In this document: piece after piece, positions 26,901-36,852 of the stretch | Layout of the letters: each line of letters begins with the position of its first letter | Numbering within the stretch: the stretch's first letter is position 1 | From: Antedon mediterranea | Taxonomy: Eukaryota > Animalia > Echinodermata | Direction of reading: 5' to 3' | Length of the DNA: 64,000 nt | Assembly: GCF_964355755.1 (NCBI RefSeq) | Contig: NC_092677.1 | Location: 9,384,101 to 9,448,100, forward strand | Program-made: the position numbers and the translations under genes | The notes under the pieces: generated by a model | What the model was told of the DNA's origin: nothing | What the model saw: the letters and a program-made list of their open reading frames with translations, nothing else | Database searches by the model: none

Positions 26901-29900
26901 ACAACGGTTAAATTCAAGTCAATTTGACTATTTTTTTGCTTTGACTAAATTACAGTCTTTCCAGGTAAAGAACTTTTTTTTCTCTCCAATTTTTGGTCAA
27001 ATTGAATAACTATTATGTAAAACATGGTATTCAACAAAGACATTTAAACAAATAATTTTTTCAAGGGACAATACACCTTTAAGCAATTTAAGTTTATTTA
27101 TACTAATTAATAAATAGCACAATAATAAGTAACACACATGCACAATTGATAGTTAACCACTTCCGTTTCACACAATTCTTACCGGATTTTCTAAACTTGC
27201 TCCTACATCATCTAGTGTACTATTGTGTCGCACAAAACTTAATGCAGAAACTTCATAAGGAATATTTCGACCTAACTGATGCTTGAGAAGTGAAGAACTG
27301 CTTTGAGACTTTGATAATTTATTATGAGAAAATGCTTGTTGAAATGTTTTGATATTTCTTGTACACTGTAAAAAATAAACAAGAATTAAGATTATATGTT
27401 AAAGCACTGCATGTTTTTATTGTTAGATAATTTCGATTTGGAAAGCAGAAAAATACTTACTGTACCATTTTTACCAAGTTTCCGTTTTGAGAACAGTACT
27501 TTAAAGGCCAAGTGCGGGTAAAAAATTTCTATTGATCATACATTTCAATAATTATCGATCAATAGTTTCCCCTAAGTTTCATAATTTTTGGGATTTTATT
27601 TGTGTTACACGAGCTTGTTGAAAATTAGCACTTTCTTATCAGTGGGGGGATAGTTCAAATTACACACTAAAATCTCTATTCTTTTGTACACAAATTTTGA
27701 AAATAGAGAGGCATTTTAAAAAGCTATGAAAAATAAACCGTGTGGTAAAAAATGTTATCAGATGACTAAATATAGGTAATATAACTTGAATTTTACATTT
27801 CTGGTATTTTTATTCAACTTCAGATTTTTATTTTCATGTTATAGCAAAAATTATCCACCGTATATCCACCATCTTTTTCTTCTTTCTTCCTGGTTTTTTT
27901 GGCAGAATTTTGCCAAATTTTGTGTTTGACCATATTAGGGGAAATTCATATTTTTTCGTCTTGATTTCTGTTACAAATATTTGATTTATGTAGGCCTACA
28001 ATTAACCAGATATTATATTTAAAATTCATGCCTGTACTACTGCTACTCTGTTATGTGAATTACTATACGAAAACATTTTTTAAATTCTCAATCGTATACA
28101 TCAATATTTCATTTATTACAAAATATTTATTATTAATGCTGGTAAATATAAATAATCATATTAGCGGCTACTCTAGCTAGGCCTAGCTAGACCTATATAA
28201 TTTATAATAATATATTATTATTAATTAATTTTTTTTCTGCTTTTAAAAATCACTTTTTTTAAATTTTTAAACTTTCTAGCAGAAATTGAACTGAAAAAAC
28301 TATATACTGTATTTTACAGGCGCTTTTAAACTACTATAAGACGAAAGACAAGGCTAGCTAGGCATATAACTCGATCTCTAGGCCTAATAGTACTAAGCCG
28401 GATTACTTACTCCTCACCTTCGACGACGTCGACAAGGATTCATGCACTTTGAATGAAATTAAATAGGGCAGGCCTAGAAATAATGTTGATACTTTTATCA
28501 AATTTATTTTAAAAATTAAGCACGTATTATTATGAAAATAAAAGAACTAATGTAAGTATGTACCTTAGTAATTGACTTCTTATTCGTTGATACTATTAAA
28601 ACTGACAAATCTACCGCACGTTTCTCGCAGGTATATAAACTATACCAAACTGGCGAGTAAATCATGTTTTACTTTTTAAACCTCGCAACGTCTGGTTGAA
28701 AAGGCTACTCGGACCAATAATTTCTATTAGCCTAGGGGTTATTGCGATTTGGACGTTTCTGATTGGCTGTAGCCATGGACTATATTGATTAACACTGTTC
28801 TGATTGGTTGTAGCTTTGAATACATCTTCTCGGAACTCGTCCTTAATACAATAGCAATTTAGCACAGTGTTTTACTATATAACCAGATAAATAATAGGAA
28901 ACATTTAATAATTTGATAAATGACATTTAAATAGCAATTTAGGTAAATGTCTTTTGAAATGAAATTAAATAAATTATAACCAATTTGGTTAGAGTAAAAC
29001 ACAATGATAAAGAATAGGAAACATTTAATAATATGATAAATTACATTTACATAGCAATTTAGCACTGTGTTTTACTATAACCAATTTGGTTAGAGTAAAA
29101 CACAATGATAAAGAATAGGAAACATTTAATAATATGATAAATTACATTTACATAGTAATTTAGCACTGTGTTTTACTATAACCAATTTGGTTAGAGTAAA
29201 GCACAATGATAAAGAATAGGAAACATTTAATAACATGATAAATGACATTCACATAGCAATTTAGCACTGTGTTTTACTATAACCAATCAGATTAGAGTAA
29301 AACACAATGATAAAGAATAGGAAACATTTAATAATATGATATATAACATTTACATAGCAATTTAGCACTGTGTTTTACTATAACCAATTTGATTAGAGTA
29401 AAACACAACGATAAAGAATAGGAAACATTTAATAACATGATAAATTACATTTACATAGCAATTTATCACTGTATTTTACTATAACCAATTTGGTTAGAGT
29501 AAAACACAATGATAAAGAATAGGAAACATTTAATAATATGATAAATTACATTTACATAGCAATTTATCACTGTGTTTTACTATAACCAATTTGGTTAGAG
29601 TAAAACACAATGATAAAGAATAAGAAACATTTAATAACATGATAAATGACATTTACATAGCAATTTAGCACTGTGTTTTACTATAACCAATTTGGTTAGA
29701 GTAAAGCACAATGATAAAGAATAGGAAACATTTAATAACATGATAAATGACATTCACATAGCAATTTAGCACTGTGTTTTACTATAACCAATCAGATTAG
29801 AGTAAAACACAATGATAAAGAATAGGAAACATTTAATAATATGATATATAACATTTACATAGCAATTTAACACTGTGTTTTACTATAACCAATTTGATTA

Positions 29901-35900: not shown

Positions 35901-36852
35901 TAACCAAATTGGTTATAGTAAAACACAGTGCTAAATTGCTATGTAAATGTCATTTATCAAATTATTAAATGTTTCCTATTCTATATCATTGTGTTTTACT
36001 CTAACCAAATTGGTTATAGTAAAACACAGTGCTAAATTGCTATGTGAATGTCATATATCATATTATTAAATGTTTCCTATTCTTTATCATTGTGTTTTAC
36101 TCTAACCAAATTGGTTATAGTAAAACACAGTGCTAAATTGCTATGTGAATGTCATATATCATATTATTAAATGTTTCCTATTCTTTATCATTGTGTTTTA
36201 CTCTAACCAAATTGTTTATAGTAAAACACAGTGCTAAATTGCTATGTAAATGTCATTTATCATATTATTAAATGTTGCCTCTTCTATATCATTGTGTTTT
36301 ACTCTAACCAAATTGGTTATAGTAAAACACAGTGATAAATTGCTATGTAATGACATTTATCATATTATTAAATGTTTCCTATTCTTTATCATTGTGTTTT
36401 ACTCTAACCAAATTGGTTATTGTAAAACACAGTATATTTTACCTACAAAATCGCCGCAAAATTGTTTATACGTTTATTTTGATTGGCTAACTAAAGTACG
36501 GTTTAATGAATATTGATATCAGAAGATTCCCTAGCTTAGTGAAAAAGTTTTATTACCAAAAATATGCTGATTACGTCACTACCGGAAGTTGTAGTCTAGC
36601 ATGATGCAGACGCAATTGATTATGTACGTTTGTTAAACATATAAAAAGCTGTAAATTACCACAAAACGACAATAGGAAAGAATTCAAAGAAATGCCCTAC
36701 GTGTTCAAAATCATTGTTTTAATATAGTCTGTATGTATAACTAACAATTGACCTTGTGGAAGAGCGTATAAATTTAATTTAAAGTAAAACATGATTTACT
36801 CGCCAATTTGGTATTGGATATATAGCTCTTTCTCGAACATGTAAGCTGCCAT
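23934..36852 (-). CDS. OXA1L: Mitochondrial inner membrane insertase OXA1L; inferred exon 1 is split by an 8.2-kb foldback insertion
   Basis: Well-supported exons: 27365-27183, 26718-26517, 26233-26090, 25528-25443, 25049-24885, 24674-24570, 24362-24200, 24118-23934. Motifs [72 protein letters not shown]. Inferred exon 1 = 36852-36829 joined to 28620-28564 ([27 protein letters not shown]), with a phase-0 donor AAG|gtacat matching phase-0 exon 2. Gene identity is high confidence; the exon 1 assignment is about 0.7. Confidence 0.88.
25115..25400. repeat. Tandem repeat, ~69-bp unit, about 4 copies
   Basis: CCATGAAAAGAACAAGAGGAAATATATGTTTTAACACTACAGCCAGCCCCTTT(C/G)AGGGGACACTTT repeated. Confidence 0.8.
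25651..25953 (-). mobile_element. tRNA-derived CORE-like SINE with an L2-type 3' tail
   Basis: Minus strand: GGGCGTGTGGTGCAG...GGTTTGAATCC (A/B boxes), TGTATCCTTAGGCAAGATACTTTA...CTCTCCACCCAGGTGTATAAATGGGTAC core, AGCGCTTAGAG...GGCACTATATAAAT...(TAT)n tail. Confidence 0.7.
27505..28037 (+). mobile_element. Kolobok-like element, family B, copy 3 (internal deletion, right end truncated) in OXA1L intron 1
   Basis: TTAA|AGGCCAAGTGCGGG...; colinear with copy 1 except for a deletion near 27880 and loss of the last few bases. Confidence 0.78.
28663..28812 (-). promoter_or_regulatory. Candidate element-borne outward promoter (two CCAAT boxes) and in-frame ATG for OXA1L
   Basis: CAACCAATCAG (near 28803) and CAGCCAATCAG (near 28762) on the minus strand, upstream of aaaacATG at 28665, which is in frame with OXA1L exon 1. 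Confidence 0.5.
28850..30400 (+). repeat. Tandem array, about 15 copies of a 101-bp unit with an internal 39-bp palindrome (left arm of the foldback)
   Basis: Unit ...GCACTGTGTTTTACTATAACCAATTTGGTTAGAGTAAAACACAATGATAAAGAATAGGAAACATTTAATAATATGATAAATTACATTTACATAGCAATTTA; period 101 (CCAAT at 29081 and 29182). Confidence 0.95.
30761..31678. mobile_element. Nested non-autonomous TIR element with 15-bp subterminal repeats and a 2-bp TSD (possibly CMC/EnSpm-type)
   Basis: Ends TATGGAATGCC.../...GGCGTTCCATA, flanked by AG on both sides; arrays of TCGATGAAAATTGCG (30780-31020) and its reverse complement (31435-31650). Confidence 0.7.
31927..31961. mobile_element. P-element-type excision footprint (17+1+17 bp palindrome)
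   Basis: CATGGACCTATAAATTA-C-TAATTTATAGGTCCATG, a perfect inverted repeat, between near-identical 7-mers GTTCAAT and ATTCAAT. Confidence 0.65.
32870..34060. repeat. Two tandem ~570-bp palindromic modules, plus a degenerate half copy at about 32270-32580, in the centre of the foldback
   Basis: TTTAACCCTAACCCTAGTTTGAAGCGATCACATA...ATACGTATCG near 32990 and 33555, with reverse complements near 33320-33390 and 33870-33940. Confidence 0.75.
34090..36432 (-). repeat. Tandem array, about 23 copies of the same ~101-bp unit in inverted orientation (right arm of the foldback)
   Basis: Unit is the reverse complement of the left-array unit (TAAATGTTTCCTATTCTTTATCATTGTGTTTTACTCTAACCAAATTGGTTATAGTAAAACACAGTGCTAAATTGCTATG); copies degrade toward the interior. 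Confidence 0.95.

Follow-up and report, generated by a model that had tools for sequence, protein, structure and literature searches.

A foldback-type transposon in coding exon 1 of OXA1L in Antedon mediterranea and evidence that the insertion is polymorphic

The TU elements of sea urchins and the FB elements of Drosophila are foldback transposons with long, repeat-built inverted arms that insert into genes, and FB is able to excise precisely. Here, we analyse a stretch of 64,000 nucleotides from Antedon mediterranea (RefSeq assembly GCF_964355755.1, contig NC_092677.1, positions 9,384,101 to 9,448,100 of the forward strand; hereafter the window), in which an element of 8,201 bp (28628-36828) interrupts coding exon 1 of the OXA1L gene five codons past the start, and whose repeat unit length and target-site duplication length are unlike those of TU and FB. 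Galileo, a member of the P superfamily in Drosophila, combines a 7-bp duplication with internally repetitive inverted arms and has many non-coding copies bearing two TIRs (terminal inverted repeats) (PMC4168063, PMC3573991), and Muta1-type foldback MULEs from Aedes aegypti show duplications of 8-9 bp and repeats of 9-15 bp (PMC5225508). In Mu-suppressible alleles of maize, e.g. hcf106-mum1 and alleles of the UniformMu survey, the promoter of the disrupted gene can be substituted by an outward-facing one located in the TIR or close to it (10.1101/2023.06.05.543741). We consider it probable that the Antedon element is a non-autonomous foldback-type DNA transposon that recently entered exon 1 of OXA1L on one haplotype, leaving a likely null or weak allele that is sheltered in a heterozygote.

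The 7-mer TTTCTCG occurs only twice between 28.0 and 37.5 kb, at 28621-28627 (left copy, coding) and 36829-36835 (right copy), i.e. exactly at the two borders of the element. A duplication of at least 8 bp is ruled out, as none longer than 7 bp exists at the junctions. The left TIR (28628-28675, minus strand) and the right TIR (36781-36828), each 48 bp long, agree at 42/48 bases and are unlike at base 1 of the termini; the TIR core pattern matches only the two element ends in the window and gave 0 matches in metagenome contigs. When the element and one copy of the duplication are removed and the exons are joined at their GT-AG borders, the resulting 1314 nt encode exactly XP_071957805.1 (437 amino acids). 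The 5' coding piece of exon 1 (36836-36852, minus strand, native ATG at 36852-36850) contributes residues 1-5 and two bases, and the 3' piece (28564-28627, minus strand) ends at a GT donor, matches the protein exactly and is covered by a spliced contig of sequencing run X5, with a depth of 49.2 at 28587. Exons 2-9 (27183-27365, 26517-26718, 26090-26233, 25443-25528, 24885-25049, 24570-24674, 24200-24362 and 23934-24118; 23934-27365, minus strand) are all bordered by GT-AG, carry no lesion and match XP_071957805.1 exactly. With the element present, the native frame runs into a stop at codon 19 (36798-36796), inside the right TIR. The bounds and duplication of the element, the restored frame, the early stop and the downstream exons free of stops and frameshifts had all been proposed in the initial annotation, and each was borne out.

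With TIRs and a target-site duplication, repeat-built inverted arms, dispersed copies, an empty site and no transposase of its own, the element belongs to the structural class of foldback-type non-autonomous TIR transposons. Its arms consist of a left array of 13.7 copies of a 101-bp unit (28975-30351), the first 11 of which differ by ~5% on average, and a right array of 21.4 copies in inverted orientation (34289-36433), and complementarity between the two reaches up to 95% over ~590 nt. The 7-bp duplication, which at this one insertion lies within the 7-8 bp of the P superfamily, points to a P/Galileo-like element, and like Galileo the Antedon element has repeat-built inverted arms. It differs from Galileo in that neither a THAP domain nor a P transposase is present, in the TIR of only 48 bp, which is parted from the arrays by unique DNA that does not match between the left and right sides, in a target that, at this single site, is not GTANTAC-like, and in the termini that differ at base 1. 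With Muta1 it shares the short terminal motif, the subterminal tandem repeats, the mixed interior seen in non-autonomous Muta1 derivatives and a gene-rich target (PMC5225508). Unlike Muta1, however, the Antedon element has a duplication of 7 bp, where the range given for MULE/Mutator elements is 8-10 bp (PMC5225508), its repeats are 101 bp long, and no MULE transposase was found. As the element contains no transposase, it can be assigned neither to Galileo/P nor to the MULEs. Of the 144 stop-to-stop open reading frames (ORFs) of at least 30 amino acids, 38 that do not fall within the arrays, or fall only on their margins, were searched against Pfam, and none gave a match; the longest ORF of the element (196 amino acids) is built of a 15-bp repeat, and Rfam gave no match across 28.0-38.0 kb. 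No literature on this element in Antedon was found outside subscription papers, and as Repbase and Dfam were not covered the family may be catalogued already.

The interrupted gene belongs to the OXA1L / YidC-Oxa1 family. With exon 3 as query, 10 proteins were recovered out of 196 candidates, the best of which was XP_071957805.1 (Antedon mediterranea OXA1L-like, 100% identical), and the full product contains the Pfam domain 60KD_IMP (PF02096, E=8.6e-25) and is 70% identical to a protein from Anneissia japonica and 54-60% identical to three other echinoderm proteins. Residues 1-95 as query returned XP_071957805.1 alone (1/67 candidates). The N-terminus of OXA1L from Anneissia japonica closely matches the sequence of Antedon exon 1, so the interrupted segment is a true ancestral exon 1, which answers the suggestion made earlier that orthologues be aligned for an MAAYM-like start. 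The gene is essential elsewhere: RNA interference against oxa-1 in C. elegans causes embryonic death of ~17% of the progeny, and loss of Oxa1 is lethal in S. pombe (PMC3922957). Two further observations concern the introns of the gene. Intron 1 (28400-28480) contains two consensus-like minus-strand donors near 28417 and 28409 that are stronger than the donor of exon 1, and may harbour a cryptic exon; short repeats of very high copy, as judged by contig depth, lie in introns at 24384-24470, 25730-25930, 26840-26990 and 27530-27990.

Parts of the locus were present in nine public sequencing runs from three studies, none of which is RNA of a known carrier. Four of them (X1, X3, X5 and X6) were compared over 23900-28860 as assembled contigs, among the matches listed; X1 and X3 derive from one sample (S1), X5 comes from another study and another sample of the same organism (S2, presumably RNA), and X6 from a related organism. 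In X1, a contig spanning 28239-28655 shows 0 differences from the window and reaches 28 letters into the element; its depth is 12.2 compared with 29.8-35.4 for four other single-copy contigs. In X3, the alleles are evenly split at 28587 (152.5/306.5), and the aligned part of the other allele ends 41 letters from this position, which is consistent with an end at 28627, where the duplication stops, and is the same figure as in X6, although a piece starting at 28547 would also yield 41 letters. Sample S1 would thus be heterozygous, with one filled and one empty haplotype. In the related organism, a contig of 1556 nt aligns up to 28627 and continues with 1181 letters that were not aligned as element.

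X5 provides a fully spliced OXA1L contig of 1982 nt that agrees with the exon arithmetic and, in the five pieces listed, differs from the window at one position, located in the 3' untranslated region (UTR). Past exon 2 it contains 137 letters, the first 64 of which are exon 1, leaving another 73. Since the left end of the element forms a separate X5 contig that stops at 28628, the additional 73 letters are not element beyond ~30, and by arithmetic they would correspond to the native start and 56 nt of UTR. The multi-copy X5 contig that ends exactly at 28628 is identical to the left end of the element over 233 bases (0 differences), and the family is dispersed: in three DNA runs from both organisms the summed contig depth in the left subterminal bin is 2,360, 45,163 and 6,556 as compared to ~30-50, 300 and 250 in unique bins, i.e. 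tens to more than 100 times the single-copy depth, a ratio that does not give the number of copies. For X5, an RNA-like run, the summed depth of the left end is 169 versus 2,360 in X1, which is low next to other repeats, but as contig depth cannot measure expression this value does not count as evidence. These data indicate that the insertion is polymorphic, being heterozygous in one animal and apparently absent from the mRNA of a second animal and from the related organism. The perfect duplication, the identity with the multi-copy left end and the intact exons together suggest that the insertion is young.

The RefSeq protein deserves a separate look. XP_071957805.1 carries the window alleles Thr19 and Ser68, and contigs from S1 show other letters at 28587 and 27247 that would change both residues. 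As the protein has the alleles of the filled haplotype, the RefSeq model may span the element as a non-canonical intron of 8,208 nt. If the reference assembly was made from S1, the prediction of XP_071957805.1 would have been based on the filled haplotype, with the element taken for an intron; alternatively, it may represent the empty haplotype of another animal, like the mRNA in X5.

For the young, sheltered insertion that we favour we propose the following course of events. A transposase encoded at some other genomic site would bind the TIRs and the 101-bp arrays and paste the element into open chromatin beside the divergent promoter that OXA1L shares with its neighbour. Transcripts from the native promoter would meet the stop at codon 19 and, 50 bp into the element, a poly(A) hexamer, so that no Oxa1 would be made. 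Persistence of the allele would be due to its recessiveness and young age, not to repair of the gene, and the ATG of the TIR core most likely belongs to a conserved end sequence and is in frame by a 1-in-3 chance. That a damaged allele might have been captured in one haplotype had already been raised in the initial annotation; the empty allele represented by the NCBI protein, the N-terminus from Anneissia, and the half-depth junction and allele split in S1 all speak for it.

Several points weigh against this reading. The letters of the empty site were not seen in reads, and the read comparison covered the left junction; the 28 element-side letters of the X1 junction contig fall short of the 31 letters set as the rule for bridging; and only one likely carrier is known, S1, which is possibly the source of the window. 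Moreover, the left end has features of a start cassette. Two full NF-Y-type CCAAT boxes (28760-68 and 28801-09) lie ~100 and ~140 bp upstream of an ATG at 28665; the two boxes are matched in 2/2000 shuffles, and the other 55.7 kb contain 4 matches. This ATG is the first after the nearer box and has an A at position -3, and the N-terminus that it would start has an unchanged net charge of +9 as far as the presumed cleavage region, with the cleavage site being guessed. Finally, in 20/33 maize alleles with Mu insertions, transcripts are initiated by the transposon, mostly within the TIR, as the main text of the survey reports (10.1101/2023.06.05.543741), so that "null" may be too strong a term for the OXA1L allele.

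These features of the left end define the most serious competitor, i.e. incidental self-rescue. Here the left end, a candidate outward promoter (unique subterminal region 28676-28860, minus strand) with transcription starting near 28680-28700, would launch an Oxa1 precursor from the ATG of the left TIR that still undergoes import and is processed into the usual mature protein, leaving the allele partly or fully functional; we regard this as rather unlikely. As had been noted before, 12 open codons run from this ATG in phase with the remaining part of exon 1, and the boxes lie at the distances then given. The five native residues would be replaced by 12 uncharged ones, and every basic residue of the presumed presequence lies downstream of the insertion, which together with the rarity of the boxes, the favourable context of the ATG and the outward promoters in Mu TIRs, by analogy, would suit such a rescue. 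On the other hand, the sole OXA1L mRNA contig, that of X5, appears to use the native start, and the native promoter is 8.2 kb distant. The boxes are one duplicated 15-mer and agree with the motif of the element's own arrays at 9 and 10 of 13 bases (19 and 7 of 121 sites in the background), so that they could just as well serve as binding sites for a transposase or as an inward promoter. No protein with a TIR-derived start was found; the TIR-started ORF as query returned XP_071957805.1 alone, 1 of the 5 candidates scored, which makes this a weak test. A difference in hydrophobic moment between the two N-termini (0.59 versus 0.51) proved to be an artefact of the 45-residue cut-off and was not used. 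At the junction of TIR and duplication (28635-28621) a new Cys precedes the conserved Glu-Lys-Arg and is the same residue as in Anneissia at this place, which is probably coincidence.

Self-rescue is also not required: an intact second allele makes it unnecessary, and the gene does not depend on it. The insertion itself and the two boxes are beyond chance, whereas the in-frame ATG is not. Among 15,864 background stretches, the fraction with an open ATG in the required frame inside 60 nt was 0.18. Because the ATG is present in both TIRs, any exonic insertion of this family would be in frame by a 1-in-3 chance, in line with the estimate of the initial annotation. Its further idea of ends acting as portable promoter-plus-start cassettes is favoured by the boxes, which are beyond chance, and by the lack of another ATG after the nearer one, and is weakened by the ATG coming cheaply by chance and by heterozygosity, which removes the need for it. 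We give little credence to the wider proposal that the foldback family bears an outward promoter and an open ATG in an invariant TIR core at both ends, by which 1 in 3 insertions at the starts of coding exons would re-launch the host protein. The likeness to Mu-suppressible alleles would hold only if rescue of OXA1L were shown. The rescues described for Mu stem from insertions in the promoter or 5' UTR, by which the host ATG is retained, and neither "ATG" nor "start codon" occurs in the main text of that study (10.1101/2023.06.05.543741). Unlike Mu, the Antedon element would also need to provide a start codon, because the host ATG is cut off; a published start codon supplied by a TIR in a eukaryote was not found in the literature outside subscription papers.

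The gene might also be restored by removal of the element, either by splicing between the folded TIRs or by precise somatic excision of the DNA via the 7-bp duplication, which we consider improbable. The ranges tested contain 13 in-frame, stop-free GT/GC-AG pairs, 2 of them with GT, and joining GT 36799 to AG 28640 would insert 16 residues without a change of frame. Excision would have an analogue in Muta1, a foldback-type MULE whose excision is precise in ~90% of events when duplications are present (PMC5225508). Moreover, the mRNA in X5 has the window allele at 28587, unlike the other haplotype of S1 and the related organism, and could therefore stem from a carrier; a pre-insertion haplotype, however, is a simpler source. 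No register of the duplication yields GT/GC-AG, which rules out exact removal as a canonical intron. The acceptor at 28640 lacks a pyrimidine tract, 35 poly(A) hexamers lie on the same strand within the element, the first only 50 bp in, and the spliced form would have a net charge of -2 over its first 30 residues. That the element is not truly at this site and reflects an assembly error is hardly tenable: assembly of long inverted arrays is difficult, and none of the contigs listed spans the element, but the perfect 7-bp duplication and the TIRs are present at both junctions, and the left junction is found, at half depth and with 0 differences, in an independent graph contig.

If the insertion is as we favour, the locus provides a natural, well-dated insertion allele in an essential gene and illustrates how the database protein of a housekeeping gene can look intact when the gene is likely broken on the reference haplotype. 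Self-rescue is a cheaply testable possibility and not a supported result, and the single nucleotide polymorphism 40 bp from the junction allows an allele-specific test of whether an animal DNA transposon supplies promoter and start codon. If true, an element-driven start would extend the "harm-reduction" strategy of maize Mutator to coding exons and to animals, and the allele at OXA1L would provide a natural example, in an animal, of a transposon replacing the promoter and first codons of an essential mitochondrial precursor, beyond Mu-type rescue.

Between the arrays the element contains an inner foldback with 15-bp tandem repeats in inverted arms (30774-31654) and a central block of ~550-bp units in direct and inverted orientation (32282-34071), which are 71-88% identical in self-BLAST and bear degenerate array motifs. 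The CpG content of the inner foldback is high, and no duplication with matching ends was found flanking it, so that a nested insertion is without support. The right unique subterminal region (36434-36780) has a minus-strand poly(A) hexamer at 36778 and a promoter-like cluster of putative motifs, i.e. an NF-Y-type box (36480-88), a CRE-like motif (36571-78), the window's only ETS consensus (36581-89) and an ACTACA-type motif (36584-95), called, as on the left side, with strings that we take to be the respective consensus. This cluster (36480-36595) could be the promoter of the parent element or captured host DNA, and its outward side faces an SLC7A6OS-like gene. Apart from the in-frame stop, the right TIR contains an outward ATG at 36791 (plus strand) and the GT donor-like site at 36799 (minus strand).

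The native divergent promoter region between OXA1L and the SLC7A6OS/Iwr1-like gene comprises 382 bp (36853-37234), with the divergent ATG at 37235, as the initial annotation had it. An Iwr1 domain is located at 61918-62277, and the ORF at 37235 is probably the first exon of this gene, which (37235-62277) would then be 25 kb long with a first intron of ~22 kb; the introns of OXA1L measure 0.08-1.2 kb. Broken ORFs at 49248-51265 resemble, by eye, a DIRS-type retrotransposon (recombinase-like and reverse transcriptase/RNase H-like), with no Pfam match in 6/6 pieces. On the other side of OXA1L, the region 540-21800 contains a gene resembling phosphorylase kinase alpha by eye, a serine carboxypeptidase (PF00450), an FeS-assembly/CIAO2B-like gene (weak PF01883), and a TPR gene that by eye is TTC5-like.

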